A DNA stretch of 64,000 nt from NCBI GenBank assembly GCA_023231475.1, contig JALJEE010001331.1:1-64000 (forward strand), read 5' to 3'. The stretch is from Seison nebaliae (taxonomy: Eukaryota). The translations under genes and the position numbers were made by a program. Shown piece after piece: positions 8,279 through 46,700 of this stretch. Every line of letters starts with the position of its first letter. The first letter of the stretch is position 1. A model generated the notes under the pieces. That model did not search any database. It had not been told where the DNA came from and was given only the letters and a program-made list of their open reading frames with translations.

Positions 8279-11200
8279 TTACAATGTCCAAATCGGATCT
8301 TCATTTAAATCACCCATATTCCGTGAGATAATTGATTTTGTTGGTTGGTATGGTGGTTTCCTAACTTGTTGCCCTTGTTGAAACCAAGCTAACTTTCTTA
8401 TATCATTCGTTCGACCATCATAAGGTGATAATATTTTAGAGCCAGCACGTATTTCTGGTGACCAAGCCAAACATGAATTTAAGAAAAATTTGAAATCTTC
8501 CGACCATTTTCCATCATCCGGTTCTTTTATTTGAGTTTCAATATAATTCTGAGGTGTCTTAGTTAACCTTAATTTAATATTGTTATGATTCCTACCTAAT
8601 TCTACCGCTGTTTTCCCTTGTGAGAATATATTCCTTACCAAGTGAATATCCTGATGAACATATGGTTCTTGTCTGGTCAATAGTTTAAATAAGGTCGCTC
8701 CATAACTAAACCAATCACAATTGTAACTATAACCTTTTCCCGGTTCTCGTTCTGCTTCAAATATTTCTGGTGCCATATATCCGGCAATGCCTTTCGCTGA
8801 ATACGTTCTTCCATATTTGTCAACTCGAGTCGCAAATTGATAGTCGATAATCTTTGGTCGACCTTCTACATCTAATAAGACATTCATTGGACTCAACATT
8901 CGATGTATTATCCCAATTTCATGTAAACGATCTAATCCATTGTGTATTTCAACCGCATAATATTTCAAATCTTCTTCATCCAACGTCTGTCGGTTATAAG
9001 AAGAATTATCTGATAACTCTTGTAAAGAGCCTCCACATATATATTCAAAACCCACGTAAATTCTTTGAGGATCTTCTTCAACGAAAAACATTTGACATAA
9101 ATTTTCATGTCTAATTCGTTGGAGGTCATCCGACTTTAACAAATCAAAATATTTTCTATTTTTCTTAGTTGACGGACGATCTTTGTCATAGACTTTCACG
9201 CAAATCACATCTTTCAAATCTCGATACCATGCTAAATATAAGGAACTATTATGATGCAAAGGATGTGAATTCCCATCATGGTATTTCTTCTCGTCGTTGA
9301 CGGAATGCAAGGTTTTAAAAGCATAAACTGAAAACTTTTCTTTTCCTAAATCATATACGCTAGAAGTGGTTGATTCTATATTTTTTCGAATTTTATGTTT
9401 CTGATACCGATGCATATCTTCCCGATGTAACTGCTGTAACATTGCTTGTCTTTGCTGCTCAGCCAATTTCACTTGATCAATATTACTCTGAAGATTTTTG
9501 GATTGGTCGTCAGGTGAAAATTTTCGATAATCCTTCGAATGGTCAAACATTCCCAAATCAACACCTTTCAACACGTCGGCATCAGGTTTCCGATACTTTA
9601 TCAGATCTACATTAGTTATACGTTGTCCATTCTGACTATCTACTTCTGAATCACTAACATCTATAATAACTTTCTTTATTCGATGATTCAGATGTGGTTT
9701 GTCTGCTCCTTCAATTTTAGTTAATCGATATTCTTGATCGTCTGAATTATCTTCATCGATTACTCTCACTAATTTTCGACGTGGTTTCTTAATTTCTTGT
9801 TTACCATACTTTTTATCGAAGAAATCTTTTTCGAAAACTAAACTTGGTGTGCTTAAAGTTCTTTTAAAAATCGAACGCTGAGTTGGGTAATCTTTTGAGT
9901 AATCTCGTGAATAATTATTCGAATAATTTCGAGAGTAATTTTTCGAATAATCTTGTGAATAATCTCGAGAATAATCTTTGGAATAATCTCTGGAATAATC
10001 ATTAATATCTTCACTATTCAAAGTTGTCTCATCACCAGAATTCATGGGAATTCTTTTATATTTTTTAATAACTTGAGCTCGTTGAATTGGATCATATATT
10101 CGTTTTTTGATTGTTGTAACGTATTTCTTTGTGGTACTTTTTGGTGGTGCCACTACCGATTTACTATGTTCATGTTTGTTTTTCGGTTGTTTCATTTTAT
10201 AATCTCTAATTCTCATTTGTTCAATTTGATGTTGATTTTCAGCTTCATTTACAATTTGATGAATAAGATCAATTCCATGTCGTATTTTATTAATATCCTC
10301 TTGTTTCTTCGCTAATTCATTATCGTTCTCATAACGGAAACCATTTAATTTGTCTTCCAATTCCTTCATTTTCTTCTTCAATTCTTTATTCATTCTCAAC
10401 TTATCTTCCATTTCTTTCTTTAATCTGTCCAATGTTATACTAATCTCAACTTCTTCTTCTTTTCTTATTTTACCATACGTCTCTTGTTGTTGTTTATATT
10501 GGATTTTTGCCTCTTCATACTGTTCTATGTAATAATTATTCCAATCTTCTTTCGTCATATCATTCAATTCTTTAAAATCTTTTCTTAATTTTTCTATAAT
10601 TTCTGGTAAAATCGATTTATAATATTCTTGACTGAATGTTGTAGAGAATTTCTTTTGTGCCTCCAATTCATTGATTAATGCTAAATGAACATCATTCTCT
10701 TCATTGATCTTTCTTCTTAAATGTTGATTCGTCAATTCTAAATCGGTTTGCTTCCGATGTTCATCATCAATTGTCAATCTACTCTCTTCAATCTGTTTCG
10801 TTAATCTTTCGATTTCTTTCTCATATTCATTCACTTTCCCCAATTTGGCTTCTTGTGTTGACTCCAAAAGATTCTTTTTATCAATTAATTCTTTCAATAA
10901 ACTTTCTAGTAATCGAATTTTTGATCTTTGATCTTTCCTTTCCACTTCCAAATGAACATTACGATCACGCCATAATTCGCCCATTCGTTTCGCTCTTTGA
11001 TATTGAACGTCAATTCTTGCTTGATCTACTGTCGATTTTGTTAATCGATTTTTTTCATCATCTAAACGTTTGTCATCCTTCAATTTTTCTTTATCAGATT
11101 TTTCAAATAGTTTTACTTTTATTTCATTCATGTCCATCATTAAACGCTCCTGAATCTCTTCCAAAGATTTAATGTTTTGTATTAAACTCGTTAATCGTCC

Positions 11201-11629
11201 ATTCAATAACTTCAATTCTTGTTTTTCCGTTTCAGCTTGATCTCTTATCTTCTGGACTTCTTGCACTTGATAATTAAGGAATTCATTTTCTTTCAATTCA
11301 GCATTTTGAAGTTCATTTAAATTCGTTAAAGATTTTGATTGAGAGATTTCATTACGTTTATACTTTCCTCTCCCATTATATTTCCCATCATATTGAGTAT
11401 TGCGCACAATTGGAGATAATTCTTCTAAAGAATCATTGTTGCTTGATGAATTGGTATGGTAATGATAATAGTGATGTTGACGGGTAGGTGAATCATTCTC
11501 TATATTCTCAGGAATTGATGTAGAAGAGCCTCCTTTCAATAATGTGGAAGAATAAGGTGTCCGCGAGATAACAGTTACACCAGGTAATTCTTCAACAAGT
11601 ACTGCGGAGGAAGTATTGACAAATGTCAT
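8279..11629 (-). CDS. Intronless 1116-aa protein: intermediate-filament rod domain fused to a C-terminal kinase-fold (pseudokinase) domain
   Basis: IF coil 1A signature EKQELKLLNGRLTSLIQNIKSLE and L12/coil 2 signature YYKSILPEIIEKLRKDF..DWNNYY. Kinase motifs are CVK, HENL, FEYICGGSL, IIHRMLSPMNVLLD, DYQ, GIAGYMAPE, DWFSYGATLF and CLAWSPEIR. Confidence 0.85.
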   Translation of the reverse strand: MTFVNTSSAVLVEELPGVTVISRTPYSSTLLKGGSSTSIPENIENDSPTRQHHYYHYHTNSSSNNDSLEELSPIVRNTQYDGKYNGRGKYKRNEISQSKSLTNLNELQNAELKENEFLNYQVQEVQKIRDQAETEKQELKLLNGRLTSLIQNIKSLEEIQERLMMDMNEIKVKLFEKSDKEKLKDDKRLDDEKNRLTKSTVDQARIDVQYQRAKRMGELWRDRNVHLEVERKDQRSKIRLLESLLKELIDKKNLLESTQEAKLGKVNEYEKEIERLTKQIEESRLTIDDEHRKQTDLELTNQHLRRKINEENDVHLALINELEAQKKFSTTFSQEYYKSILPEIIEKLRKDFKELNDMTKEDWNNYYIEQYEEAKIQYKQQQETYGKIRKEEEVEISITLDRLKKEMEDKLRMNKELKKKMKELEDKLNGFRYENDNELAKKQEDINKIRHGIDLIHQIVNEAENQHQIEQMRIRDYKMKQPKNKHEHSKSVVAPPKSTTKKYVTTIKKRIYDPIQRAQVIKKYKRIPMNSGDETTLNSEDINDYSRDYSKDYSRDYSQDYSKNYSRNYSNNYSRDYSKDYPTQRSIFKRTLSTPSLVFEKDFFDKKYGKQEIKKPRRKLVRVIDEDNSDDQEYRLTKIEGADKPHLNHRIKKVIIDVSDSEVDSQNGQRITNVDLIKYRKPDADVLKGVDLGMFDHSKDYRKFSPDDQSKNLQSNIDQVKLAEQQRQAMLQQLHREDMHRYQKHKIRKNIESTTSSVYDLGKEKFSVYAFKTLHSVNDEKKYHDGNSHPLHHNSSLYLAWYRDLKDVICVKVYDKDRPSTKKNRKYFDLLKSDDLQRIRHENLCQMFFVEEDPQRIYVGFEYICGGSLQELSDNSSYNRQTLDEEDLKYYAVEIHNGLDRLHEIGIIHRMLSPMNVLLDVEGRPKIIDYQFATRVDKYGRTYSAKGIAGYMAPEIFEAEREPGKGYSYNCDWFSYGATLFKLLTRQEPYVHQDIHLVRNIFSQGKTAVELGRNHNNIKLRLTKTPQNYIETQIKEPDDGKWSEDFKFFLNSCLAWSPEIRAGSKILSPYDGRTNDIRKLAWFQQGQQVRKPPYQPTKSIISRNMGDLNEDPIWTL
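9887..10000 (-). repeat. In-frame 12-bp tandem repeat encoding about 9-10 copies of (D/N)YS(R/K/Q/N)
   Basis: Translation DYSRDYSKDYSRDYSQDYSKNYSRNYSNNYSRDYSKDYP. Confidence 0.9.
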
Positions 11630-13968
11630 ATTCTCTCATAAGAAAAAATATTTTCTAAAAATTAATAAATTGTTTCTTTACGAAAACGGTTCGGGTCAAA
11701 ATACGAACGTCAGTAGTACGTTGTACAACTGACAATTGAATAGAATTAGTAAAATTGTATAAAAATAATATTCGTATAACTTTTCTTACAATTAAACATT
11801 GGTCTATTATATTCTTCAATCGTTTTCATTGAAATCAATTATTATTGATAATATTATTGGAAACACATTGATGTTATTATCAAAAATTTTAACTTCATTC
11901 CTACATAAAAAAACTGTTCGATGTTCTCATATATACTCATACTTTCAATTCATGGTCTCTCAATAATAGAATGAATATTAATTTGCATGCATCACCTTCA
12001 ATAGCTACCTCTCATTTCCAAATAAACAGGTCCCGACTACTCAAACAATAACTTATTCTCAATAAGTGTCATTCTCAAATAACAATGCAGAAACTTTAAA
12101 TTATTTTTAATAAATTTTAAAGAAAATTTTACTATCGATTATGATGACCAAAAAAATCTCAGTGACATAATTGTTACTAGTGATATTGATGCGAAGTGCG
12201 AAGGGAAATTTTGGAAAACGACTGGATACTTTTAAACATTATTATTAAACTATTATGATAATTTTCGTTCAATTCTTCTTTTATCGAATTAATTTCATTA
12301 ATAAATATTTCTAATTCGCACAAAATTAGTAGAAATCTGAATGAATTGAGATCAGTTACCTAATAAAAATCGAATTACACATGGACCAATAATAATAACC
12401 GATTATGAAAGTTATCAAAGATTATCAGCTTATCAGAGATTATGTAAAAAATTTTCTATTGAACCTCCGTTAATTATCTGGAGAAAATTTATTTGTTTAT
12501 GATTAATCAAATTATGTAATGTCATTCATTCCCTTCACATAAACATAACTACGAGAACGTTAATGTGCCATCTGGAAAGAAGGACGTAACTTTTGAGAGG
12601 CTTAAATCTTCTTCCTATTTCACAATTCTCACACCAAAAAGGAAATAGACAATATTTTGGAAATTAAGTATAATCTCATTTTAATTATTGTCATTAATCG
12701 TCTGCGTTCCAATACAACTTACTACCTGTAGAAATTAGACGGAAAATTCTAATATAAAATCTTGCCGATCAGTTGCGATGAAAGGTGGAATGAATGGTAA
12801 AAATACCGAAGAACATCTGAAAATCAAATTACCTTCTCTCACTATGTAAATTTTGTGGAAGAATAAATAAATAGAAGAGAATGTTCTCTTTTTTCTAATT
12901 TCATAAATGATAATGGAATGAAATCATAAAGAATCATCGATTCTTTAACAATATCATCATTGACGTCGCGTAAGAAATGAAAGTGAAATCATCACGTTTT
13001 GATGTCATTTTTAAGAGAAAGAAATTGAATATGTAAGCAAGTGTCTATGTATATATATGTGGATGATGATGATGTTGGTGACGATGATGATTGGAATAAT
13101 TGTTATTGTTCTTATTATTGGAACTCTTATCAATGTTGATTTCGTTTTAACATTTCCCGTCAATGAATTATTTTAATGTTTAGTGTAACCATATCGTACA
13201 TGACTCACATAGTCGAATGTGCTTATGTAGATGAGTTTATTTGTCATATAACTGATGGAAGATTATGGAATAAGACATAATAAATTTCATCTTTCCCATT
13301 TCATTTCACATTTCCTTTCGAACCATCATAAAATTTATGTATATGTCATTCCTTCACTGTCGTTGTGTGTTTGTATGTTATATAATAGACAATAGAAACC
13401 TTCCAATGTACTTATATTACCAATGATATCGACTAATAATAAGAGAAATTGCATTATCTCTAACGAGAATTACTAATAACAAAAAGAATTTTATTCGTTT
13501 CACATTTATCGATAAGTAAGATAGTTTTAATTGAATTTAATTCAACATATAATTTAGAAATAATTATACTACTACTATTTTACTATTGTAAATACTAATT
13601 AGTCATAAGTCATACGATTTATTAAAGTGGTATGTAATACTGTTATATTATATACGTAATAATAATAATATTTTATTTTGAAAGTAATTGAGATTTTCAG
13701 AAGAAACTTAAACTCATGAGAATATTGGTGTAAAAAATAACTCTATCAAAATCATTTATTTCGTTTAATAAATAAAATGGAAAATATTTTTATGAAAAAT
13801 AATAATTGTCTTTCTTCGTTTGGGGGTAGCGATTGATTGACGATTAATTCCATTCAAATGGGGAAAAAGAGTTAATTGGAAAATTGAAATTATAACGATT
13901 GAAACAATATGTTGAACATGTGGAAATTGGCCGATAAAAATTATATTTGTGGATTTAGAAGTGTTCGT

Positions 13969-14346
13969 TTATGCATCAGGAATTGAACATAAAGGATTCA
14001 ATGGAACGCATGCTCGCAATTCACCAGGTTTGGCATGTTCGCACAATTTTTCATATCCTTTGTGTGCCTTTTCTCGATTCTTTTCCCGTTTAATGTCATT
14101 AGCTTTCTTAATTTGGGCGGGAGATTTGGAACTCCAGAAACGTTTCAAAAACGTATGAGCTTCATCTTTTTCTAAAGAAAATGAGTAGTCAAAAATTATT
14201 TATATCAAAATTATTAGTCCAAAATATTAACGTAAGAAATTCACCAAGTCTTCCATCGAATCGTCGTCGGATTCACATCTCACGGATGTGAATAGAACGA
14301 AGCTCGATACGAGCAATAATGTGACAATGGACAAATGTTTGTACAT
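13969..14346 (-). CDS. 105-aa secreted protein precursor with a Gla-propeptide-like motif (matrix Gla protein-like); 2 coding exons, not in the ORF track
   Basis: Exons 14346-14232 and 14171-13969 are joined by a 60-nt GTT..TAG intron, giving MYKHLSIVTLLLVSSFVLFTSVRC-ESDDDSMEDLVNFLQKDEAHTFLKRFWSSKSPAQIKKANDIKREKNREKAHKGYEKLCEHAKPGELRACVPLNPLCSIPDA*. The signal peptide is clear; the family assignment is tentative. Confidence 0.65.
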
Positions 14347-15084: not shown

Positions 15085-18000
15085 TTAATCAATCGTTAAA
15101 TTATCGTTATTGTTTTCCGTATTTTGTATTGTCGAGGCTAACGATAGACGAGGTAATCCCGGTTCCAAAAAGGGAGAGAAATCTTCGTTTCGTGAATAAT
15201 AGATATGATTGTTCATTGGGAAATTGTTCGTTTTCTTTAGGTCATGACATTCACTTGATTCGTTGTTGGAGGTGGAATAATCGAAACTGAGTTTTTTCGA
15301 ATCCGTCAGAAATGATGTGGTACTAGCTGACATTTGATTATCATAATTCAAATGAGCTTCTCCTTCTGTTATTGATGATTCCTCAAATCGTTGTTGTTGA
15401 TATTGATATGAAGGATTGGTGATCGCATAGAAGGGAGTGACATGATTATCTTTCCATTTGGATAATTCTTTCGATAATGTTTTAATATTTTCACTATTCT
15501 TTATTCGTTGCATTGTTGTCTCATTGTCATTAGGGTTATTTCCTGAATTACATTCTGGAATATTCTGATTCACGGTATTAGTAGTAGTTGTAGGAGAAAG
15601 TGGAAGATTGGAGCAATTGCTAATCATCGATTTGTCATTAATAAAAAGAAATTTCAAATGCTCTTCAGCTTGTTCGATAGCTGCATCAATTTTGTTAACT
15701 GTGGAATTTAATGGAGAATCGAACTTCCAATCTTCAGGTAATAATTTAGGATGTAAATTGGCGTTGACAGAAAATACTGAACGAGAACGTTTTCCGTTGT
15801 CGATGGAAGTCCCATTAATTTTCTTGGTAAGATTTCTGATGAATTCAATATTATTATTCGTATCCAAATTCTTCATTCTTCCATCGATCTCTTCCGTTTT
15901 ATCATGTTGACTCTCATCTTCATCTTCTAATATTGTCACTTTGATATTATTCTTCTTATCGTCGACACTTAACATTGATTGTTTCGTTGAATTGATTTGA
16001 TGAGCTTTTGGAGAAGTATTCATAATATCAGTCAATGATGAAGAGGAAGCAAATGACATTTTTGAAAGAATATTATTGTCATTTTGGGTACTAATTGACT
16101 TATGCAGAAAACCATCTGATGGTTTCAATCGGGAAGAACGTCGTATAAAACATCGAACTGATATGATCATAATGATTGAAATGATTATCAAACTAATGAT
16201 TATTACAATCAATAACGTCGTTGATCGATGGAAACTTACCGTTCCATTTAAAATTGCATTATATTCATCATCTTTCCTCTTATTCTCATCCATCGGATCA
16301 TCCGCCAATAAATTGTCGGTTAATTTTCCTGTTTCTATTAAATTCTTATCGTTCGTTTCATAATATAATGCATTGAATGAATGAGTTAAAAGTAAGTTGA
16401 CTTTAACATAATTATTATATTTTTCTTTCGAAACAATTTGCATATTTTTATTATGAAATTCAAGTTTCATTTCATCAGACATCTTCGGGATAATAATTGA
16501 TAATTTGATGATAATTTTGAATAGATTTCTCTCATTCTTTACATTCATTCCATTTAACATATTTTCCGATAGAAGAAACTTGAAATAAATTAATCGATTT
16601 TCTGAATATTTATATTTCAATCGATACATATTGTCATCCAAATAATTGTCATTGGAACGATCAAATAAATTTAACGTTCTATTCTCACGAATTTCCACGT
16701 CGATACCGATTAGGGAAATATCTGTCAAATATTGTTCATTCGTCGGTCGTAATGATAATAATCCATACAACATATCACCAAAATGAAAGTTGTTAATTTC
16801 ATTTTTTTCCATACTATTCTCTTCATAAAACGGAAAAGTTTTCATCGAAAACGTCAAATCGAATTCCGATAGTAATTCTAAAAATTTTATCATAAATAAC
16901 TTTATGAAGAATTTTCCAAAGCAAAATTTAAAAAAACTTTTCGGACAAGTTGATATCTGTTTCACTTTTATAATTTCAAGTTTTTCGTTGTTGATTTCTT
17001 CTCGTAGAATTAAAGGTTTCTTTTCAAAATATCTACATTCCAACATCGTACAATTACAGACGACATGCTAGAAAATACATATAATTATTATTAATGGAAA
17101 AATGGAGATAAAAATTGATAATAACAATAGTTCTTTTCGTTTGTTCCGAGGTACACGATAAAGAATTTACGTCGAATAAGAAGTTATCGAAATTAGATAA
17201 TTTCGTGGACGTTCTCTCTTTTTCATAAGACAATAAGAATTGTTCCAATTGTAAATTGATATTCATTTGTAACTGACATGAATTCGAATTTTCTAAATGT
17301 TTCATTGATGAATTAATTTCATGAAACTTCGTATCAACTAATCCGTCTTGATTTTTAAATAAAATTTGTTTCAGGTTTATAATCTTGGTCCAATTTTGTA
17401 ATGCATTTATTAATCGAAATTCGATAATATGAGGTAATTCATTGTTATCGATCAGTTCATTGACAGATATGGACGAACGTTGGAAATACAACGGAAACAA
17501 GAAGGTAATTAATCTTTCGAAGTTCTTCTCAATCTCATAACTCATTTTTGGTAATTCACGAGTTGTTCCGTTAATAAATTTTATGAGGCATTCCACAAGT
17601 ATTCTTTCTTGACTTTCTGATTCTCCATCAAGTCTCAGAGACAAATTTAACTTCTCATTAATTCTTGTTAACCAAATATTCTTCTGATTAATATTCAACT
17701 GAATATTCTTCTTCGGTGCAATCGGTTCATTTAAGAAATGTTTTAGTTTGAGAGTAATATCAGTAAAATTAAATTTCGATAAATATTTCTTCATCGATCC
17801 CAATGAACGGCGATCTTTTTCTGTCAATTTTTCGGGCGGTATCAATTGAATCAATAATTCATCATTCCCACTCACCAAAGTATATTGAGCATTCGTTAAA
17901 ACTATTTTATAAACATGTTCACTCCTTTAAAAAAAAGTTAATTATATTATTATTCGAAAAGTTCCACAAAATGATTCTAACTTGTTTAATGGCGTAACAA

Positions 18001-21000
18001 TTTGACAGGGTTGAAGACTTTCGCCTTCATCAAAATATATTTGGTGAGAGAATATGACTTGTTCATTTAACATCGTCAAACAATCGATATTAGCGTGATG
18101 TTGAAGATTACCAATTCGTTTGACCAGCAATTCGCCCACTTGTATTTCCGTTTTAACATAATTCAATTCCCATGTTGAATAATCTAAATAAATGGAAATG
18201 GATTAATGGAATTGAGAGAATAAATAATGAGCATTTCTAACCATTTGTTAATGCAGAAACGATATCTATATAATCTTTTTGATTGATATTCTTCAAATTT
18301 AAAATTGGTGCTGGAACTTTAATGGAATTTTTATTTTTCTCAATTTTAGCGAACGAATTCGAAACAGTTGACACCGATGTAACAATAGAGATGGTGGACG
18401 GTAGACGTTGTTTTAAGAATTGGATGACCGACCATTGAATGATGAAAGTGAATTCTTTTCGTCGACAAGAGTTCTGTCCATTACAGAGGAAGAATGTAAA
18501 ACGGTCGTTTGTAGGAATAAGATTAGATCGTTCGTCCATTTGATGATATTGAGAATATCGACGATATCGATTATTTTCTTCACTCAATAACGAATGGTAA
18601 TCCAATTCATAAAATATTTTCCTATTATTTATTTCGATTTGAGAGAACATGGAAACGATTGAATTATCTCTCATGACTCGACCATATTTCGGTTGTGTTT
18701 GAATCTTATAAACGATATTAGAGATTGACCCGTATCGTTTATTTGAATTAATTGCCATTAATTCATTTTGTGTAATAACACGTCCATATGAATCATTTAA
18801 TGATAATGGATTATTGCTCAATTGAAAGATGTGAGCGAATCCTTTGTTTTTCAGCAATTCGATTTCATTTAATAAATAATTTCGACAATGAAAATACTCT
18901 TTCAAATCTATTTTAATGATAATGTCTATCCAATTTAATCGATTCCATTTCTTCCCATTCACATAAAATACAATTGATGAATTAGTTGTGAAAAATTTGA
19001 GGGAAATTGAAATTTTATTCTTTGTGGATTTTGGCTCTTTCATAATCATTCTTAATCTTCCTTTACCTCTCAACCAATCGTGCAATGAAATTTGATTAGT
19101 TACTCGCCACAAATGATTACGAGAACTCTCTAAATTAAAAGATCTACCCGATTTTAAAATGAGATAGATTGATTTATATTTTTCCAAATCGTTTTCCTTC
19201 TCAATTTCTAAAGATGAATTAGTTGAATAATAATAATCGATAATTTGGTTGTTCTTACATGATCCATCTCTTGTGTTCCATTTGTAAATCCATTCAGATG
19301 ATATCGTCATTGAAACATTCTCCTTTCTTACAATTTCCACGGATTGTTTCATTTCCATATCATATGCTATTTTATTTAATCCATCGTCAATTGTAAAGTT
19401 CATGAAGAAATTATCATAATAATTCCGATGAATATTGAGACAAATTGTATTTCTTAAAATATCACTGATTTTAAACGAGTAAATGGCGTTTCCTTTCTCA
19501 AACAAGCATTGACTTTTCGTATTATTTTTGAATAAATAAACTGATTCGATAAAAGATATTGTTAAAAAGAGATAATTAAAGAACAAACCTGATGGATTTC
19601 TTGAAATTAAATTAACATTTAATTCTTCGGGCGAATTGTCGACGTCATATATGAAGAATGCTTCGGTCATATCGAAACAATAACATTTAGTTTTGTTAAT
19701 TTTCCTATTCAATTGAATTTTCGTTAGTTTACTCCCGTGAATTTGAGGTTTCATCGATATTCTTTGAATTTCATAATGAAATTTTTGTTTTGAAAGTTTT
19801 TGTTGATTCGTTGAACAAATGATGTCGAATTCAAACCAACCAATTTGACGAGGTAATCGATCGGTTTTCATTCTTTTCAGTTTCAGTTTTTCTGGAAAAT
19901 CAGTAGAGAATATTTGTGGAAAAGAATTTGAATAAAACTTCTATTAATATCATTTTGAGTAAACGTTGTATTTGGAGGAATGATTTGTTCATTCAACAAC
20001 AAACTGATTTGGTTATTTGATGGATGAATAGTTCGATAAATATAAAAAATATTCGTACTCTGATTGTTATAACCATTGATTGAATACAAATAATTGTTAC
20101 TAATGATTACAGATGATTCTAAAAAGAAAATAATGAAAAGATCAGAAACTAAAAGAAAAAAATAGAACTTTCTTTCATTACCAATAATCGATTGCGTTTA
20201 ATAATAGGCAATGCATAATTCATTTGCATTTCTTCTTGCAATTTCTGATGTAATCGTTTTCGATCTTGTTCGAAGAATTCTTTAGGAAATTGAATGAAAA
20301 TTGTATAATTTTTCTTATTTTCATTTCGATCACTTAATCGTACGATGAAGAAATCTCGTTGATATTTACTTTCGATATTCAACGGATAATTCTTTTTGAA
20401 AACGAGCAAGAAATCTTTAATTTGTAAATAATTATATAGTTGTTTCATTTGAATATGATAAATTTGTTGTGTGTTTGACTGAAAAAGAATCTTTCCAAAT
20501 AATGGGAAAGCAATAAATTCGATGAAAATATCTTTCTCTTTCGTATCAGAATCTTCAATTGATTCAAATAAATTCTTAAATGCACAAAGTGATCGATTGG
20601 ACGAGAAATAGTTGCAAAAATATCTAAAATTAGTTTCATCGAATCGACTAAAATAGGGTTCATCGTCATCAATTTTCTACAAATAATGAATAATTCTTTT
20701 AAGTCAAATAATATTGGAACTTTAATATTGATAATTAATTTCATTGATTCGTTACTTTGTTGTATTCCATCGAAAGCTTTCAAGTGAATAGTCGCACTTT
20801 TCGTTTTACCTAACGGTTTTATATAAACCTTCTTCTCTAAAATATCCGTCAACTTAAACCGTTGGAGTGATATCTTCGGATCTAGAAACGAATAATAAAA
20901 TAAATTTCATTTAAACGGAAGTTTTAAACTTTGTTGATTATAAATTATGTAAGAATCATCATTTCCCATATGCACGATGGACAATTCGCTCAATTCACTA

Positions 21001-23581
21001 TCATGATCTTTGATATTGAACAAATCTTTTGGAAGGAGAATATTCTCATTCTCATTTATATGAAACTCATAAAGATATTCGGTAGAATTTCCGGTTTTGT
21101 AAACTTTGACGTTTTCCTTAAATGGCTGGGCAATTGTAGGGGCGATATTGTTAATTGGCTTTATTAGGATCGTTAATATTTGATCAGTTAAACGATTATC
21201 ATTCGAATCAATTACGTCAAAATGGATTTTATCAACAATCATGGAAGTTCCAATTTCTTTCGGTGCTTCATATCGTAATTGAAGATTATTTAAGTTATTC
21301 GTTGTAAACATATCACCAATAGTCAACGCAGTGATTGTCAAGTCTTCATCAGTAAATGTCTGGGATGATGTTAATTGCAATTGACCATAAACCGGTAATT
21401 TTATTAGAATAAATCGAAGATTTTTATCATTGTCTTTATAACAAATCGATTGATTTGTAATTGTAATTATCGAATTTTCTGGTATGCCATTTAACGTAAT
21501 CTCATCCAATTCATCATATGACAATTCTTGCAATCTATCATATATTAATAATGTACAACCGTTTTTTAATTCGGGAACTGTATCATCCATGTTATCCAAC
21601 CAACTTTTCTTATCGATTATCGATTCGAGATTCATTATATTCGATGAAGAAATATATTCATTCCAATCGAATGGTAATCGAAATTTTAAAAGTAATCGAA
21701 CCAAATTTAATCGATCACTCACTTCCACATAAATTTTCGTTTTTAAATTATTAATTTGTTGAATATCGTTTTCGATTGAATAGATATTGGAAAATTTTAA
21801 TAAGAAATCTTTATTCTTCATTTGGTCTAGATTCATCATTCGATCTGTTGATCTCACTCGATATCTATCCGTCGCGTCCTAGAAAAGAAGAAATTCGAAG
21901 AGATTAGACTTGCAGATATGGGAGGTTTCTTTTCAAAAAATTTAGAATTACCTGAAGAGAAGGCGAAGAAATATGCGAAATATTATAAAATGGAAAGAGA
22001 GGAAGTGAAAAATTGTTATAAGGATTTCATTATCGACTGTCCTACCGGCGAAATGAATTTTGATACATTTCATAATGTTAGGAAATGTATATAATTCGCA
22101 TATTTTTAGAAAAGTATTTGAAAATAGATTATGAAAACTGAATATTCAACAATAGAAGTGAGGAATATATCTCGTTTTTTATTTAACGCAATCGATCTCA
22201 ATGGCGATGGAATTTTCAATTTTTCCGATTATTTGGCAGTAATTCAAAAAGTGAAATCTAAACACAATTTTGATAAGTTATCTGTATTATTCAATATTTT
22301 AGATACGGAAAAAAAAAGTTCTTAATTTTTTGCCATAATTCTCTCCTAATTCATTCCTTAGAGCTGATTACTTATCGAGATCTTTGTATTGTGTTCAAAG
22401 AATTATTCTTATTATTGGGAGAAGATGAATCTGAAATCATAAACTCGATTAGTATCTGTGTTACAGCTCTGTATCAAGAACTTAATCTGAGGAAGAAGTC
22501 AAATATAAATGCTGAACAATTCTATCAATTATCTCTGAATCGATGAACTTAATTTAATTCAATGAAAATTAAATTTTAAACTAACTTGTTTAATGATGAA
22601 ATATAATTGTTGTAGATTGGTTGTTAAATCGTATATACTCTCTAGACATCCGCTAATATTGAAATGGAAATTAGAGAATAATTCCTTTTCTTCATAATTT
22701 CCAACAGTTAGAGAATTCTGTTGTAATCGATTATCGTCCAATAACTGTAGTTGCACTTGACATTGTGCTGTTTCAATTTCATGATTCTTAATATAAGTTG
22801 AATTAAAGAATGTTGGAGCCCAAAGATCGGTTGGAAGTATGAGAAGTCGAAAATCGAAGTTCAGTTTCTGCAGTTTCTCCAATGATGATATGGGCCATTT
22901 CCGTTTCAAATGTTGGAATGTTCGACTTTTAATAAGTTGCTGAATGTTAATTTTTATTTTGAATTGTAATTTCCCAAGAAAATATAAAATGATTTTCGAT
23001 GAAGACAATTCGTTGTTTGTCGCATTTTTGAAATATATCAATTTTCTCCATTTGATTTGATTGTGAGATACAGTTTGAATATAAACCTTTCCATGATTCA
23101 ATTGTTTCTGTGAAAAAGCATAATCAGATACTTCTCTAACATGTCTTTCTCCATCGACAAATAGCTGAATATTCAAAGGAAGTGAAGTAATTTGATAAAT
23201 TAGGAAGTTTTCGAATTCTTGTAATTGGACAATCTTTCTTAAAATGACTACTTCTTTCTGATTCCAAAGTTGCTTATCTTGATGCATATGATTAAATATG
23301 TCGAATATAGTCAAAGTATATATCTGTTGTTCGTTCAATAACTTGATATTGTTATTTTGAAGAATTTGCTCTTTAAACAATTGTGCTGCACCTTCTTCGG
23401 GTAAAAGGATTTTTCTTCTCTTCAACGATTGTTGAAGAAGAACATTGTTACGAGAATGTAATGAATTAAGTTGATATATTCCATTGTTGGATATTGATGA
23501 CGAAGAGAATAAGTTGCAGTAATATCGATCAATTGGAATAATGGAAATTATTAATATGAAACTCAATATGGATTGCATCAT
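15085..23581 (-). CDS. FRAS1/FREM-family extracellular matrix protein: signal peptide, CSPG (NG2-type) repeats, Calx-beta-like region, single TM, cytoplasmic tail; at least 9 exons
   Basis: Nine track ORFs join in frame via GTT..AG introns (707, 48, 44, 50, 47, 58, 57, 58 nt). CSPG motifs include LPVYGQL..FTTNNL..LRY..D.IHFDVID..IKPINNIAP, QPKYG..FSQIEINNRKIFY..DRFTF and FIIQWSVIQF. The TM segment is LLIVIIISLIIISIIMIISV. Confidence 0.75.
21918..22546 (+). CDS. Neuronal calcium sensor / recoverin-family EF-hand protein of about 177 aa, nested antisense in intron 1 of the FREM-like gene
   Basis: Exons are 21918-22076, 22128-22317 and 22362-22546. It has an N-myristoylation-type start MGGFFS, the NCS EF1 motif YKDFIIDCPTG, EF2 DLNGDGIFNFSDY, and KL..LF..LD before EF3. 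Confidence 0.85.
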
Positions 23582-36437: not shown

Positions 36438-39400
36438 CTATTTCTCTGTTTGGGGAACTGCCAAACAATTGTCTATCAATGACTGTTGCATCAATATGAA
36501 TTGAGATCTTTCCATTAAATCCGATTTCTTTACGAGTTCGGGCGATGACGAATTGTTAATAGATGAAATATCTTTTAACAAATTATCAGCATCCTTAAAT
36601 AAAAAATCATCATCAATATCATCCAGAATTGAGTCGTTTGAACTTTTATCACTTCCGTTATTTTGTTCTTTCGGTGTAACGGACGACAAATCAGTTTGTT
36701 TCGAATTGTATTTCAAATTTGTTTCATCAAAACTATTCATATTTTTTTCGACATCCACTTCCGTACTCTGATATCTAGGAGAAGAGGAGAAGTTATTGAA
36801 ATCCTTTGAAAAATAATTGATATTGTTATTCGTTTTTTTATAAGGTGTGTTAATATCAATATTATGATTGTTTTGATGATAATTATGTTTGTTGGAATCT
36901 TGAGATGGTCCTTTACTAGAATATTCCGTCATATTATTTACAATTAATTTATTGGATGATGCAGAAATAATAGTTTGTTTCATATGAGGATCATTTGGAG
37001 GAACGGGTTTATTCTCCATCTTTTTCATAACATTAGATGACATAGAATCGGGAGTTAATGGAATGTAAGGAGATATCATCGGAAATGGTGGTTGAGGCAT
37101 CGGAAATAAATTTCTTTGCATTATTGACATTGGCGGATTTCCAGGATTAGGTGGCGGTCCCGGTCCCATATAAGGGGGAAGCATATATTGATTATTCATT
37201 TGATTCCATTGCATCATATGATTATATTGTTGATGATGATGTTGTTGTTGTTGCTGTTGTTGTTGATAATGCAGTTGGAAATATTGTTGTTGATTTTTCG
37301 GTTGTTGATTATTCAATGTCAATTGATTTCGTTTAGAAGGTTTTAAAATTTTAGATTGATGTGATATTTCTAAATTAGTTTTAACGGGCCAAGTGGCGAA
37401 TCCATTATTCGACATTTGTTGGGATATCGACTTATTTCGATTATAACCAAATTTCATATATTGCGGTGTAGTGGGATGTGAAGGACAATTGGGATATGGT
37501 TGTTGTTGTTGTTGTGGTGATGGTTGTTGAGATGGAATTGGTGATAATTTGGATGGATGAAGAAATGGTTGTTTCATAAACGATTGATTTTGTATTCTAC
37601 TTATTGTTTTCGTTGATTTATTTTTCTCATTAACTTTCGTCGGTTTTTCAATTTCCGTCGTTTTATTCTCTAAATTCTTTTTACTCAATTCTTTCTTTTT
37701 CTGCATTTTCTGATGTTCATTATAATTCGCTAACGTACCAGTAATCGATGCAACTTCTCTTATCAGATCAGCTGATTGTTTATTTCGATTAATCAGCAAT
37801 TTAGAATTCTCTAAATTCGATGATTGACTACAATCACTATCTTTTATTAGAATATCTTTCTTCGATCTTTTTAATGAGGTTGCATCATCTCTCGATAAGT
37901 TACCAGCTAGTTTTGGATTAACTGGGAAGAAAGAGAATTGAAAACGATTCAATTCTGGATGGACAATATAATACATTTTCAATTCATTCATTTTATGTAG
38001 TAAAATCTTCTTAGTAATCCAATACTGAGTGATTGGAACAATTCCAACACTAGCCTCCTCATATAATTGGGAACTTGGTGTAGAAATACAAAAAAAATCG
38101 TTAGTAGTCCTCACAATTTTCATTGTCATATTATCGAATGCATTATCTTTCCTTATGAATGATAAAAGTAATTGTAATTTAATAATTAAATCATGATCGG
38201 ATATAGAAGGATAATTGGCTTCGAAGAACCATTCCTTCTCTTGGGCAATCTGTCGAGCAAACGGTCTAGTTAGCCAATTATAATGAAGTAAAGAATTGAG
38301 TAGACGATTTTGTAGGACTGTTAATCGATAATTGAAAATTACATCAGTTTTCTTATAAACTGTATTTTCGATCGACGAAATTTTTTTCCCTTGTAAATTT
38401 CTTAAAGAATCTTGTTGTAAACAATCTAATAATAAGATATCTAATAAAGCCGTATCATCTTCCGTTAATATCATCGAAATATTCATTTTAATATATTTGA
38501 TGTTACACTTCATAGTTGTTGGTCTTATTCGTTTTATATCAACATTCTCTTTCAAAAGATCATAAGTCTTCTTCTCATTACCTTCCTCGTCTACATTAAT
38601 GAACTGACGGACAGCGATCCATTCTTGTTTCATATATCGATCCCCAATGAAATATTGTGATATGACCGTTTCACTTTTTCGGATTTCATTCACTTCCGCA
38701 CTCGTCCATTTGTAATGACGTCGATGGCGTAATCGGAAAATTGTTGTTTGGTCATACATTTTCACTATGCCGAATTTCCCCATAATAAAATTACATTGCT
38801 AAATTTAAAAAGAAAAAAAGATAGAAAGTTTTCCGATGAATAAAATGAAACTTCTTCGATCATTTTCTTGTTACTACTATCTTCTTGGAATGGCATCGAT
38901 CCAGTCAACATGATGAAAGCGATAACACCACTCGCCCAAATATCGACTTTTCGTGGATCATATGAATGTCCTTTCAATATTTCGGGAGCTGCATATGCCT
39001 TCGAACCACAAAAAGTTCGGCTTAAACTAACCGGTGCCATATCGTCAAAATAAGTTTCACAATTATGACCACTGAAATAAGCATCTTTTATTCTTAGAAA
39101 AAGAATGATATTCTTCTCTTCTGAATCATCCATGTAAGCGATTTCGCGTCTTCGTTTCTCTAAAGCTGAAGTGTTTCGAGAACCATAAATCTCTTTTCTT
39201 AAAAAATCTTTACAATCTTTTGGAATATTAAAAGCATTGCTCGCTTTCTCCAAATAGAGTTGTGTAGCGAAACCGAAATCTGTCAATTTCAAATTTTGTT
39301 TGTCATCAAACAAAATATTCTCACATTTCAAATCGCGATGAGCAATATTATTAGAATGAATGTAATCTAATGCTTCCAACAACTGTTTCATCCATCGTCT

Positions 39401-40252
39401 CACCAAATAGAATTGAATTGACGAATTTTGTTGGATATAAGTCAATGCGTCACCACCAGACGCAAATTCGATAATTGAATATACGTTTGCCGAACCCATA
39501 AAACTATCGTAGAATTGAACGATGTTCTCATGTTTCAATTGTGGCCATAGAAGTAGTTCTCTAGGTAAGAATTTGCGACAGAAATCTTTCGGTGCTAATT
39601 TCAAATTAATCACTTTTACAGCACAAACTTGATTATTATATGGTAAGAGGAAAGTTAATCTTTCCTTCAACTTCTGAATAATTTCACATTTAACCGAATT
39701 CGTCTTAATTTGCCCTTTCTCTTCCTCCATGTCAATATCCAACAATTGAGTAACATGATCCGTATTATGTTTCAGGTAAGTTTCTGCACATTTCGCTTTA
39801 ATTTTCAACGTATCACACGCACGATATACTCGAGAATAAGAGCCTTGTCCTAACGCTTCTCGTAATTTAAGACATCTGGAATTCGTTTCTATATTATAAC
39901 CAATTAGCGTATCATCGTCGAAATTTAAATCTCTATCACTTATCGAACTTTGCAATTCATTATTCTCATCATTCTTAATCTCCGAATTCTCATTATTGTT
40001 AATCTTCATTTTATCTGTCTTTTTGATACTAGTGATACGTAAAGAAGAATCTTTCAAATGAGAAAGATTTGGACGAAAAATCGCACGCACAATTCTTCCA
40101 ATTGTTTGCACATTATCTTCATTATCATAAATTGATAAGGCTTCTCTCAGACGTTGTTGAAGATACTGTTCATCTGGAACGACGGCAATGTGTCCTGAAT
40201 CCCGATCAATAATCATTAATGGTCGTGCATTAACGGTGGAAGGTTCATTCAT
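36438..40252 (-). CDS. Testis-specific Ser/Thr kinase (TSSK) family protein of about 1250 aa, with large insertions and a Q/P/N-rich tail; 2 exons
   Basis: A 53-nt intron at 38799-38851 (GTTTC..TAG) joins the two track ORFs. TSSK motifs are LGQGSYS, APKDFCRKFLPRE, HRDLKCEN, DFGFA, LSRTFCGSKAYAAPEIL and YDPRKVDIW; a subdomain XI-like LLNSLLHYNWLTRP..WF lies in exon 2. Confidence 0.85.
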
Positions 40253-41076
40253 CTCTTTGCTTCTTCACAATAAAATTTTTCCACAATAATTATAATTTCC
40301 TATCAAATTATTTCTTCGTAAAATGGTTTTTTGATATGGAATGAATAGATATTTAAACGTACAATTTAACGATATTAAGGAATAAGATATTATTATATCT
40401 TATTCTTTTTTGACAATAGGGATGATTCAAACGCGCACAATTCATCCTCAACAGTCTCCAACGGTCAAACAAGAATCACATGTCATGACTAAATTTTAAA
40501 TTTCTTCTCGATTAAAGCTACGTGTTAATGAATCATCATTCTTACATTGTTAGTTAAATTTAAAAGTTATAAATATTAAATAGTCTTAAATAGAAAATAT
40601 TAATTTTTAGTTAGTCAATTCTAAAAGAAAGTTTGAAACATTTTTTCTTTATAGTGACTGTAAATAATTTATAATAAAAGGAGAAAATTAATTAAAGTAA
40701 CAGAAAATCAATAGAATTTACTAGATAATTAGAAATTATTTGGTGATTTATATTTAACTTTTCTTTCTTTTTGTGTGATGGGGATAAGAGAAAAGAATAA
40801 TAAAAAAAATTGAATATATGATTTGTTTGAACATAAATGTATTTAATAAAAAGCTCAAATTGATCCAAATTACATGTGTCTGCATGTACACGTATGTTTG
40901 TTTGTCTGTCTGTCTGTGTGTGTGTGTGGGTGGATGAAAACATGAGAATTATGAACATGGATATTTGGAGGACAATAAGAGGGAGATAGAATGAAACGAT
41001 AAGAATAAATTTTGGAAACTTTTCGATAAAAGCATCGTAGAAAATGATTTCTTGATAAAAAGAAAAATCTAAAAAT

Positions 41077-43063
41077 TTATTGATAATCAGAATCTGTACA
41101 TATAGGACGGGAGCGATATGCGTCAATCCAATCATCGATTAACGTTGAGACCACCGGAGTTTCCATAACTAAAAAGACGAATTAGATGATTTGAAAAAAT
41201 TTAGAGAAATATTCAAACTGACTGACGCCTTCGCTACCAGATGTCCATTGTTCGTTTCACCGATATCCATCCATTCGTCCAATAATTGTCTTTCATGTCC
41301 CATCTTGAACAATAAAGGAAGATTAATAAAGAAAGAGTAAATAGATGAACTTGTTCGGATGAAACAAAATGAACAGGAAGAAGATCTCCATTGAAATCTT
41401 CAATAGGAAGATAATATTTATTGAGAATGGTATTGGTCGAATTATTATTATGATCGCGACGATTAAATGAAACATTCGCATGTTGATTAATTGCACGATT
41501 ATTTTTCTGATCAACGGCTAACAATGCACAAAAATGATCTTTTACATATCCGAGAGCAATTGGCGATTTGAAACATTTCGTCGATTGTTTCCATAATAAC
41601 GGCAAATAAATTCCTTGAAATCGAACAAAGTCAATCGCCTCTCCATTCAGATTACATGCATGCTTCACACTATAAATGATGATCGGTCTCCTCAACACAT
41701 GAGCTAATACGAACACGTGTACTTGATCGAGTGCCGAACCATTTTCCCTGCCCATTCTCAACATAGCTTTCCATTCTTTATCCCAATTATCTTCGGATAA
41801 TTCATATTTCAAATTATTCGATGCCACTTCCACTTCATATTCATAGCAACGTTTCTTAAATTGAATTGATGAACGTTCCATTGAACGTGCCATTCCATTT
41901 CTGAGAATATTATCAGTGTCTAACACACCATAAAGTGCTTGGAGGACACTGTTCAAAAGACAATCGCCTGCACCCTTATTCCAAATGGCAAATAAACAAC
42001 TCGTATCTCTGACATCTTCACACCAATTAATGCAGAAACCTTTCTCCAACTCTTTCTGCATGAAACGATCAAAACTATCGTGATATAATTGTTCGATCGA
42101 TCGTTTTCTCAAACTGAAAATATTTGCGGGAAGAATAAATGTTGGCCATTCGTCCAACGTATAACAAATAAGTGACGATTCGGGAACTTTTATTAAAGAT
42201 AAAGAAACTGTCAAATGTTTCTGAATTAGAAATGCCGCTTCCACTGCATGTGAACATGGCGTCCGTCTCACATTTACATTATTCTTCATTTTATTATCTT
42301 TCATTGTGTTCAATCTATCTGAGGTATTAGCTGGATGTGGTTTATGTTGGAGGAACGATCTCGATTGTCCACATAATGTGCAACGACGACTGTTCTGATA
42401 ATTCTCATATGTACATGCATCACATTTCCACTTGTTTGATGGTATGACAACGGATTCCGATTGATCTGATGATGGAGAATTTCTTATTTTATTTTCATTC
42501 GATTCATCGTTTATAGTTATTTTTGGTGAATTGTTTCTATCTATTTTTTCTTCATTTGTCGTCGTTGTAATGGAAGTCTCTCTATTGTCATTGGATTTAA
42601 ATTCTAAATTTATCGGAGATTCCTGACCACACATACAACAATGTCTTGTCTTCAAATAATTGAGATATGTACATCTCTCACATTTCCATTTGTCAACGAT
42701 ATTCTTCTTATTCTCTTCATTCGAATTGATATTTGAATATTTATTTTGTTTATCATCCAACGTTGTTGTCGAAAGAGAAGATGATGGTGATCTTCTCATG
42801 ACTGATGATGTTGTGGAAGTGGTAAGAGAATTCTTATTATCATCATTTTCACATTGTTTCTCATTCGACTCCTTCAACTTCCTCCAACGTTTATTCATTG
42901 AATAATTATTAAAGTTGTTGTTTGTCGTTCTCTCATTAGAATTGTCCGATTCAGTTTTCGATGTAGTTGACGAATGTGGTTGACGACACATCGTACATTT
43001 CATTGTACGTCGATAATTCAGATAAGTGCAAGATGAACATTCCCATTTTTCTGAATCAGACAT
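41077..43063 (-). CDS. ZRANB1: TRABID OTU deubiquitinase with three NZF zinc fingers (3 exons)
   Basis: Three W.C..C.Y.N....C..C fingers; OTU motifs WNKGAGDCLLNSVLQA, HVFVLAHVLRRPIIIY, FQGIYLPLLW and KSPIALGY..HF. Introns 41304-41350 and 41169-41218 restore the C-terminus LLDEWMD..LVA..PVVSTLIDDWIDAYR. Confidence 0.93.
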
Positions 43064-43785
43064 CGATCCTAATCTTCTTCTCTTTGGGGACTTAATATTC
43101 GGTTCTAAATCAATTCTTAAACATCGAATAATTCAATTTCTCTATTTATTCAATCAATAGAATTCTGCTTTTTCATTTTATTAAGAATCAGAAAAGAAAA
43201 AAAATGATAATATTACAATTGCTTCTTTTATTATTTTTCTTATCTACCACATTCATTCGCTACCAAGAAATTAATCGATAAATTATCAGGAAATATTCCA
43301 CACATAAACATACATTCAAATACCTCTTTTCATTTTCTTCTTTCAAATTCTAAAAATGTAGTACGAAAGAATAGTTTGAAAATTTTTAGAATTTTCTTTA
43401 TTATTTTCGAAAAAAATATTTCATGTCGAAATATTTGAAACAATTCATTGGCATTAACCTCCTCCTTCGTCGGCGAGTACGTGAAGAGTTGAGCAATGAA
43501 GATAAGTTTAATGGGAACATTTCTTCTTCGAACATTCTCCAAACAAAGATAATTAATCAGACTCGTGTCTATCCTCCTGATGTGAGAGATGAAATAATAA
43601 TTTGTAAAATATTGAACATCTAATTTATGGGTAGTGGAAATATACATGAAATTATAAAGGTATTTATTTATTTGTAAATAAAATTACCATTATTTACTTT
43701 CACTGACATAAGAGGTAGAAATCATGATTTATGTTAATTCAAAAATTAAGCTTAAATAAACCTATCTATTTGTTGTTTTTTCAAG

Positions 43786-46700
43786 ATGTTTTTCAAATTT
43801 TGGATACTTTATGTTAAAAATTTTTTCATTATTTTTTTCATTATTATAATAAAATTATTTTTAGATTTTATTCCATTCAATTCGTGGAAATGCTGAGAAG
43901 AACCATACTCTGAAAATTATTCAATTGGATTCTGAATTGAATCATCGATGGAATTTAAACCTTAATTCGTCAATTATCTACTTCATCAATTACAATTATA
44001 CTGTAAAAATGAATAATGTTTCTACTAAAATTTATTGAAAATTAAACTCATCTATTATTACTTCATTAGATTATTCAAGCAAGCACCAGATTATTGACGG
44101 ACAACATTCCATTTCCCGTTTTTTTTACAGCGATGCAAGATGAGAATATTGTTAATTGGAAATTACCATATAATAAATCAATGGCAGTACATCGATCACT
44201 TAATCGAACTATTTGTTTTACGAAAGAGAAGGGAACACATCATTCGATTCATATCGAAATATCAACATCGTCACCGGGAAATGTGACGATTGAATTGAAT
44301 ACAACATATTGGAATTATCATTATAAGTTCCATTCGATTATTTCTCCTTTTATTGATTAAGTTTGAAGTCTTGGAGAATCCATGGAATTTGAAGCGTCAA
44401 CTGCTGATGATCGTTTTTATTTGATTGTCGATTCGAAAATTCCGATGAATTTAAGTGATCGATTCATGCTCGATTTCACTTCTCCAACTTCCAGTTGTTC
44501 AACCATCTATCTATTCTCTTCAAAAGTTCATTACATTAAATATTCAACTAATTTTATTAATTCTCAACTAATCATAGACTCATTGTCCGACATTAATTGG
44601 CGATACGAATCATCTATTATTTATTGATAAACTCTCCATGACGAAAGTGGCAACGATCAACTTAAAACATACAGCCATTCGAAATGCATATTATTTCTTT
44701 AAAGTATCTGTGGAGAATACGGGAAAACCATGTAAAGTATTAACCGACATTTACAGTTGATATTATTTAAATTATCATAATAATTTCTATTTTCCTTGTT
44801 AGGTGGAAGATCAAGAGGAGAAATTAAGAAATCCATCACCGTTCAGACACACAGTGGTGAATCAGGTCAAATTGAATTTTTTCATTCTTTTATCAACTTA
44901 AATTTGTTAATTTACTTAATTATTACTTTATAGAGGGGGTAATTTTACTATCGATCTTGCTACCATTGTGTCTTATATTTATCTTGTATATTTCTCAAAT
45001 CTTAATAGTCTTATCTCCAGCTATGAAACATAAGTTTAGTATGAAGCATTTACAATTTTCAACATGTTCTTTAATCAGATTATTTCCTTATTCTGTAGAT
45101 GTTGATAATTTAGTCCTTGAAGAAGAGAATAAAACAGTTGATGAAAATGGATATACTCATCTCATAGGTTAATATTATTTAAATTTAAATATCTCTCTAA
45201 TTTAAATAGATAATGATAATGTATCTTATGAACGAGATAATAATAATTCTGAAGAAGATGATAAATTGTTACAACTATCTCCGGAACATTCCAATATATT
45301 GAATTTGTCGGAAGATGAGAATCTACTGGATTTACCAATAAATGAGGCGACGAATGAGAAAAAATTATTATTGAACATTCCAAAAGAAGATGAAAATGAA
45401 GGAGATCATTTATTAATCAATGCAATTCAACCATACAATACATCTAATGTAAATGACAATCAATTATTCCTTCCCGACAATGCAAGTATCAACAGTGACA
45501 TCTTATCCCATAGTCATCATTATTTATCTGGAATCGAAATTGAAAATGTGAAAGCTGATCAAATTTCTTATCCGAAACTTTTATTCTCCATTTCAATCTT
45601 CTACTCTTTACCGAGTTTGCAATTGGTGTTGAATTATGAATGGTTCCGCAATTCCAATGGTAATAACGACGCATGTTATTATAATTTTCGATGTCTCCTT
45701 CCCGCTGGTCAAATAACATCGTTCAATCGTCTCTACAGTAATATCGGATATATTTTACTGGGAATCTTATTCTTTCTCATTGTTCATATGAGAGAAAGGA
45801 TTAAACAAAATTCTCCATATTCATTTAACGAATCTCGAACTGGAACGTTACAACAACGAGGTATGTTCTATGCAATGGCGATCTCTTTGATTGCTCAAGG
45901 ATTTCTCTCAGCCTTCTATCATATTTGTCCCAATTATGATAACTTCCAATTCGATACAAGTTTCATGTATACTATGGCTGTGCTCATCATTCTCCAACTA
46001 TTTCAAAATCGTCATCCAAAAATGAGATTAACAAGCAATTCACTCGTTTTACTCGTTGCTACAATCATTGGAATTGTTGTTTGTGGTGTAGTTTAGTCTT
46101 CTTTTTTACAATATTGTAATATTCCATTGTAAATTGTTTAGTTTTTCAATAGTTACTTAATCTTTTGGATAGTCTATGGTATCTCACACAATATCATCAG
46201 TTCGGTCGTTTGTGCCTTATTATGGAATGGTGGCAATCTGAACTTCAATTGTATTGATGGTTCAAATTTCTAAAAAAATATTTCCTCTTATTTTATTTCT
46301 TATTCTTCTTATGGTCGTTGATTTAGTAAACAAAATTAATATTATCAAAACGAAATTGGAAAGAAGAGTTTTATGTTTCTTAATTTTTATCGTAAATTTC
46401 GTGATGTTACTTCTTTTCTTCGAAAAAAAATTTTGATTAATGTATTTCCTTTGCAGAAGTATGGTTGGGTACCAGGTGAAACCTCCATTCTCAACATTAA
46501 TGGTCTCAATCATGATGACGAATGTTCTCCTGTACTTCCTCTATTATCTTATAATGAAAGTTCTTCTAATTAGATTACTGTAGAGATATGATTCTAACAA
46601 AAATTTCTATTTTGAAAGAGAGTCATTTGTAAAGAGAAAGTGAGATTATTGCCAGCCTTATGTTTGCTACTTTCGGTCATTATTTGGTTTGTTGCATCGT

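Follow-up and report, generated by a model that had tools for sequence, protein, structure and literature searches.

Two predicted secreted proteins of the rotifer Seison nebaliae with a candidate gamma-carboxylase docking site

The gene and its surroundings

The window, the whole 64,000-nucleotide stretch of Seison nebaliae DNA analysed here, carries on its minus strand a two-exon gene for a 105-residue protein that is letter-for-letter the NCBI model SNEBB_009590 (P0001; Table 1). Seison is a rotifer that lives on crustaceans. The first-pass annotation had listed a signal peptide, an acidic stretch and an F-x5-A-x3-L-x-R motif, and all of these motifs were recovered at the same positions on the minus strand. 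The last of them is present in the spliced protein but requires the removal of a 60-nt intron, which had been tacitly assumed. Because the intron separates F37-L38 in exon 1 from the remainder in exon 2, the docking-like motif depends on the splice. Eight donor/acceptor combinations give more than 70 aa, and the chosen one gives 105 aa. The predicted splice at 14231..14172 is backed indirectly by the register of a paralog, by the low GC content of the intron (0.18, with exon values of 0.41 and 0.38) and by a diverged contig whose match ends inside the intron. Contigs over the locus are DNA-like, contain no joints and are silent on expression.

The sole hydrophobic stretch of the protein is N-terminal (Kyte-Doolittle 11-residue maximum 2.64), and the paralog, SNEBB_007320, likewise has a single N-terminal one (maximum 2.85). 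The signal peptides of both proteins were judged from hydropathy only.

Table 1. Features of the SNEBB_009590 gene and its predicted protein (positions are those of the window)
Feature	Position	Strand	Basis and remarks
Exon 1	14232..14346	-	codons 1-38 plus base 1 of codon 39; matches NCBI model SNEBB_009590
Intron, 60 nt, GT..AG, phase 1	14172..14231	-	splice enumeration; GC 0.18; predicted
Exon 2	13969..14171	-	rest of codon 39 to stop; within ORF 13969..14199; 99% identical match to SNEBB_009590
Predicted signal peptide, residues 1-24	14275..14346	-	hydropathy; putative cleavage site
Acidic Ser/Asp/Glu stretch, residues 25-33	14248..14274	-	one S-x-E (Ser30); MGP-like
GGCX docking-like motif, residues 37-47	14146..14238	-	F37, L38, A43, F46, L47 = -16, -15, -10, -7, -6; intron between -15 and -14
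Dibasic K48-R49 and conserved Trp51	14134..14145	-	complete furin site (R-x-K-R) at this place in the paralog
Conserved Glu/Cys region, residues 68-100	13987..14085	-	E68, E72, E79, E83, E89 (candidate Gla sites); C82, C93, C100

A diverged copy of exon 1 was also detected. A low-depth contig (depth 4.3) matches 14332..14222 with 15 differences in 111 nt and then departs; the match covers exon 1 through codon 39 together with 10 intron bases. Eight of the 15 differences, those away from the ends, were listed; they cover codons 17-30, and the residues at F37/L38 of that copy lie outside them. All eight fall at third codon positions (P=1.5e-4), six being synonymous and two Asp/Glu swaps, and exon 1 is therefore under coding constraint. 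The contig may represent the second genome type known for Seison nebaliae (PMC8351084, in part). One of its changes replaces Glu25 of SNEBB_009590 with Asp, which leaves an MGP-like N-terminal Gla site unsupported. Separately, a 45-nt stretch at 13874-13918, located some 50 nt beyond the stop codon, is retained with two differences in a second low-depth contig and may be a conserved element of the 3' UTR.

Nothing in the flanking genes hints at the role of SNEBB_009590. An uninterrupted frame of 1118 residues at 8279-11635 (minus strand) joins an intermediate-filament-like rod (Pfam Filament, residues 137-455, E=1.7e-7, below the cut-off) to a Ser/Thr kinase domain (residues 797-1065, E=8.8e-36), an unusual fusion, with a short tandem tetrapeptide repeat between the two. 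Directly upstream of the SNEBB_009590 gene, at 15085-23581 (minus strand), lie long frames with Cadherin_3 repeats (FRAS1/FREM-like) and, downstream among them, a frame with a transmembrane-like stretch and a long tail; together they are probably one large, very divergent matrix-protein gene. Further along are a Ser/Thr kinase with long inserts (38765-40264, minus strand), an OTU deubiquitinase with RanBP-type zinc fingers (41234-43132, minus strand), which we take to be TRABID-like by its architecture, and a gene of the SID-1 dsRNA channel family (45206-46096, plus strand, E=3.9e-60).

The paralog and the conserved motifs

A phmmer search of 1.84 billion representatives at E≤0.001 returned three matches: SNEBB_009590 itself, SNEBB_007320 (P0002; E=2.2e-6) and P0003 (E=4.8e-5). 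SNEBB_007320 is a Seison protein of 95 residues, identical to SNEBB_009590 at 36 of 92 aligned positions (39%). P0003 is a tandem-repeat protein with neither signal peptide nor docking motif; its hhalign probability was 6%, and it was rejected as a chance match and left out of the profiles. When a profile of the two Seison sequences was used in a word-based search, only these same two proteins were confirmed among 43 candidates. None of 311 pattern matches in prokaryote genomes was confirmed as a relative, and the count for viral contigs was 0 of 450. No relatives from outside Seison were found among the 1.84 billion representatives, though rotifers bearing the gamma-glutamyl carboxylase GGCX are in protein databases. 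SNEBB_009590 is thus a real, constrained gene of a two-member family that is so far confined to Seison.

The docking of substrates is described by cryo-EM of human GGCX with five of them. Three pockets accept hydrophobic residues at -17 to -15, including an invariant Phe-16, then Ala or Gly at -10, and finally a hydrophobic residue at -7 (Phe in matrix Gla protein, MGP) with Leu, Val or Ile at -6 (PMC13187478, in part). All five structurally defined positions (-16, -15, -10, -7 and -6) fit in both Seison proteins, and the pattern occurs once in each. The counterparts of F37, A43 and F46-L47 in SNEBB_007320 are F25, A31 and F34-L35. Position -15 is Leu in SNEBB_009590 and Met in SNEBB_007320; position -17 (Asn and Gly, respectively) is hydrophobic in neither. 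Both paralogs have the same F, A, F and L in the same register (P=0.027 given 31/74 identity; like the other conservation statistic below, this value comes from two sequences and from a test picked after the alignment was viewed). Of the F-16, A-10, L-6 and R-4 spacing that the first-pass annotation had compared to vitamin K-dependent propeptides, the first three residues are kept in SNEBB_007320 but R-4 is lost there.

In 200,000 shuffles the five-position pattern appeared near the N-terminus at a rate of 0.19% for SNEBB_009590 and 0.58% for SNEBB_007320, and anywhere in 0.7% of SNEBB_009590 shuffles. The three-position motif originally pointed out is more permissive (3.5% of shuffles anywhere; near the N-terminus 1.0% for SNEBB_009590 and 1.8% for SNEBB_007320). 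The window's 14 long frames, 7,946 residues in all, contain the five-position pattern once. At the scale of a genome or secretome the motif of one protein could be due to chance, and the real evidence is therefore its conservation in the paralog.

The docking site of MGP is defined by an ANxF motif, which SNEBB_007320 carries exactly; SNEBB_009590 has A-H-x-F, as does catshark Mgp1 (PMC8006282, in part). The R-x-K-R site of SNEBB_007320 ends 17 residues from the docking Phe, and in shark and human Mgp2/Bgp the furin site lies 15-16 residues from it (by eye, from the supplements of PMC8006282, in part). R-x-x-R is absent from SNEBB_009590, where only K48-R49 is found.

After the motif, conservation is selective. 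All five Glu residues of SNEBB_009590 are identical in the paralog, vs. 24 of 55 positions overall (P=0.012, with the limits given above), and among the other residues Cys is kept at 3/3 positions, Lys at 4/9, Asp at 0/2 and Ser at 0/4. The acidic stretch at residues 25-33 is not kept (0/6 aligned). With regard to the N-terminal serine phosphorylation cluster of MGP, SNEBB_009590 has one S-x-E and one S-x-D, and SNEBB_007320 has no S-x-E. The part of SNEBB_007320 after the furin site holds 11 Glu in 54 residues; residues 50-105 of SNEBB_009590 are basic, with 5 Glu, 2 Asp and 12 Lys/Arg in 56. No Gly-basic amidation signal was found.

An AlphaFold2 model built from the two sequences has low confidence (pLDDT 60, pTM 0.30). 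In this low-confidence model the Glu residues of SNEBB_009590 are arranged as two i,i+4 pairs along a helix predicted at residues 56-83. Foldseek returned no matches for it, and VIA-align returned generic helices only (best Z 5.1).

Comparison with vertebrate Gla proteins

The two-sequence profile was compared with 177,635 PDB sequences and gave 11 matches at E≤10. Human MGP (9nub_A) came second, with E=0.073, and was the only Gla protein among them; the top match was an unrelated STI1-domain protein (E=0.036). The alignment is collinear over MGP 5-62 and takes in S-M-E, the docking site, Trp, N-R-E, Tyr and L-C-E. The acidic stretch of SNEBB_009590 aligns with MGP 5-9, and E68 and E72 align with Glu48 and Glu52, two Gla sites of MGP (PMC13187478, in part). 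A profile of the post-docking part only found six PDB matches at E≤10, none of them a Gla protein. Because the match vanishes once the docking region is removed, the likeness to MGP stems mainly from a motif common to any GGCX substrate. SNEBB_007320 alone gave 10 PDB matches, again with no Gla protein. The by-eye alignment with MGP in the first-pass annotation was reproduced by HMM, but it ranks below an unrelated match and is lost without the docking region, and it therefore does not establish homology with MGP. The profile check against Gla-type families came out negative: no Gla, MGP or UCMA family in Pfam was matched by either protein or by their parts. For UCMA, neither protein had a Pfam match at E≤10, a threshold to be read with the HMMER filters, which drop matches above about 0.1.

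MGP of jawed vertebrates (PDB 9nub_A) and SNEBB_009590 share a size of about 100 residues, predicted secretion, a basic overall charge, and an acidic, Ser-bearing N-terminus with S-x-E. Both have an internal docking site with Phe at -16, a hydrophobic residue at -15, Ala at -10, Phe at -7 and a hydrophobic residue at -6, and Trp, N-R-E, Tyr and L-C-E follow in the same order. However, the core Gla motif of MGP and osteocalcin (BGP), ExxxExC (PMC8006282, in part), has no match in either Seison protein: in both, E68-x3-E72 is followed by Lys-Ala, and the caveat of the first-pass annotation that the first Cys is missing holds for the pair. Their three Cys residues follow another pattern, and the C-terminal A-Y-x-x-Y/F segment of MGP is lacking (by eye). 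The E-value of 0.073 is not significant, and no likeness to MGP is detected beyond the docking region. Gene structure differs as well. The Mgp gene has four exons, with the docking site in exon 3 and the Gla domain in exon 4 (PMC8006282, in part), whereas SNEBB_009590 has two, with the intron within the docking motif. Intron loss is possible, since Seison genes are compact (PMC8351084, in part). With ExxxExC and the four-exon structure both absent, SNEBB_009590 was not filed as MGP/BGP.

Osteocalcin and shark Mgp2 resemble SNEBB_007320 in layout, as a docking site, a furin site and then a mature peptide with Glu and Cys. They differ from it in the lack of ExxxExC in the Seison protein, and no PDB or Pfam osteocalcin match was obtained at E≤10. 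A likeness of the C-terminal C-x-x-L-N-P-x-C to human osteocalcin was set aside: the stretch varies among vertebrate Bgp proteins (by eye) and gave no PDB match. GRP/UCMA also has a signal peptide, a short propeptide, a furin cut and a Glu-rich mature part (PMC13204790, in part), comparable to the Glu-rich mature part of SNEBB_007320, but it gave no Pfam match and the Seison proteins have three conserved Cys. The available part of the same source reports UCMA as absent from invertebrates (PMC13204790).

The rotifer carboxylase and possible roles of the family

A search with a metagenomic GGCX fragment (L027) as query found 931 proteins, the first five being from Rotaria, Adineta, Didymodactylos (two) and Brachionus. 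GGCX is therefore present in four rotifer genera other than Seison and goes back to the ancestor of the clade. The Brachionus enzyme matches its human counterpart with E=1.5e-209 and keeps the equivalents of His160 and Lys218, as well as an aromatic residue at Tyr425 (alignment by eye). No Seison protein was among the best 120 of the 931 matches. Seison sits on a long branch, and about 35% of metazoan BUSCO genes are absent from it (PMC8351084, in part); with so many missing, GGCX too may have been lost there. The available supplements of PMC8351084, and part of those of PMC12256650, have no entry for GGCX or VKOR. One of the Didymodactylos GGCX models (P0011, 912 residues) also bears EF-hand domains and is either a fusion or a merged gene model.

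On balance, the most plausible reading of the pair, made from sequence, is a Seison family of secreted candidate GGCX substrates. The earlier proposal of a carboxylase substrate has gained support from the five of five docking positions fitting in two paralogs of 39% identity, from the five of five Glu residues kept and from GGCX in related rotifers, but the proteins remain candidates. If this reading is right, the proteins would enter the ER and lose their signal peptide, residues 37-47 would dock at the propeptide site of GGCX, and E68, E72, E79, E83 and E89 would be converted to Gla. Outside the cell, the Gla residues paired at i,i+4 along the predicted helix could then bind calcium, giving a secreted helical peptide with a single disulfide and a third, unpaired Cys. 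SNEBB_009590 would either keep its docking site, as MGP does, or be cut at K48-R49; SNEBB_007320 would lose it at the furin site in the manner of osteocalcin and GRP. By analogy with vertebrate Gla proteins, we guess at a calcium-dependent extracellular role in matrix, in adhesion to the host or in the control of mineral deposition in sea water. Several points stand against the substrate reading: GGCX may be lost in Seison, no relatives turned up outside Seison although rotifers with the enzyme are represented in the databases, and the conservation statistics come from only two sequences, with tests picked after the alignment was viewed. The docking pattern is also one face of an amphipathic helix and could arise by chance a few times per genome, and SNEBB_009590 has only 5 Glu, vs. 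12 Lys/Arg, between residues 50 and 105.

A less likely alternative, though one to be kept in mind, is an ordinary secreted peptide or prohormone specific to the lineage, whose F/A/F/L pattern marks an amphipathic pro-helix that is conserved but unrelated to vitamin K. It would account for the dibasic or furin site directly before the conserved Trp in both paralogs and agrees with the retention of all three Cys and the lack of a Gla-type Pfam match. The unrelated basic tilted helix bundle (BTHB) domain of HECTD1 also aligns about as well by eye, so such matches arise easily. A prohormone leaves unexplained why all five positions fit exactly in both paralogs, why ANxF is present and why Glu is conserved selectively, and the Gly-basic amidation signal is missing. 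Descent from the BTHB domain itself is very improbable. BTHB belongs to a large cytosolic ligase, and both Seison proteins start with a signal-like peptide. PF18410 is the only Pfam match of SNEBB_009590 (residues 20-85, E=0.0084; PDB 2lc3, E=0.47), but it scores 16.5 bits vs. a cut-off of 25.6, the paralog is unmatched and the match drops out with the two-sequence profile, which largely refutes a BTHB identity.

It is also doubtful, and less probable than the prohormone, that the pair is a true, deeply diverged MGP/osteocalcin homologue, a possibility that is mostly a subset of the substrate reading. The Seison proteins would then be the outgroup that the family lacks, one paralog being MGP-like and the other osteocalcin/Mgp2-like. 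The collinear match to human MGP, the only Gla protein found in PDB, speaks for this, as do the placement of E68 and E72 on two MGP Gla sites and the A-H-x-F shared with catshark Mgp1. On the other hand, that match ranks below an STI1-domain protein and the post-docking profile finds no Gla protein, ExxxExC is absent and the exons number two, not four. The Trp-to-NRE spacing common to the Seison protein and human MGP is inconstant among vertebrate Mgp proteins (by eye). Homology would require many independent losses, as no relatives of MGP/BGP are reported in lamprey, hagfish or amphioxus in the available part of PMC8006282, and the protein searches made here found none in other invertebrates.

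As small protostome peptides whose docking site is exactly of the vertebrate type, the pair offers a cheap and direct test of the role of GGCX outside vertebrates. For the MGP/BGP family no outgroup is known; not even lamprey or amphioxus provides one (PMC8006282, in part). If homology with MGP were true, the pair would be the first outgroup of a family whose origin is otherwise placed in jawed vertebrates, and a small secreted Gla protein would date back to the ancestor of bilaterians. An uncleaved MGP-like form and a furin-cleaved osteocalcin-like form would then stand side by side in a rotifer, and the origin of calcification regulators would be earlier by several hundred million years. If the likeness is convergent, a docking site and a Glu helix can be reinvented.

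Cone-snail conantokins and the Gla proteins of Ciona are known invertebrate substrates, so a GGCX substrate in an invertebrate is no novelty in itself. Conotoxins use recognition sites of a different type, and the Ciona proteins have Gla domains of the clotting-factor type. Other invertebrate proteins have been proposed as substrates, namely anemone Sym32 (PMC3141003, in part) and fly Comm, for which an offset propeptide is proposed and in which the first Glu residues are missing (PMC5578492, in part). With the Seison pair these proteins share a use of GGCX, actual or proposed, beyond the vertebrates. Unlike Comm and the others, the Seison pair matches the vertebrate docking consensus in exact register, and does so on small, free-standing peptides. 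A literature search, with most subscription papers outside its coverage, found no report of a rotifer Gla protein or of an invertebrate MGP-like peptide; further context is given by PMC12647623 and PMC4555119 (both in part). Invertebrate GGCX and VKOR work; fly GGCX is functional but dispensable, its knockouts showing no obvious defect, and roles other than clotting are open (PMC5578492, in part). Long intronless GGCX-like frames were also seen in metagenome contigs (L026, L042, L028, L044 and L045; GC 0.37 to 0.61), which suggests that animal-type GGCX is present in varied, possibly non-animal, eukaryotes.
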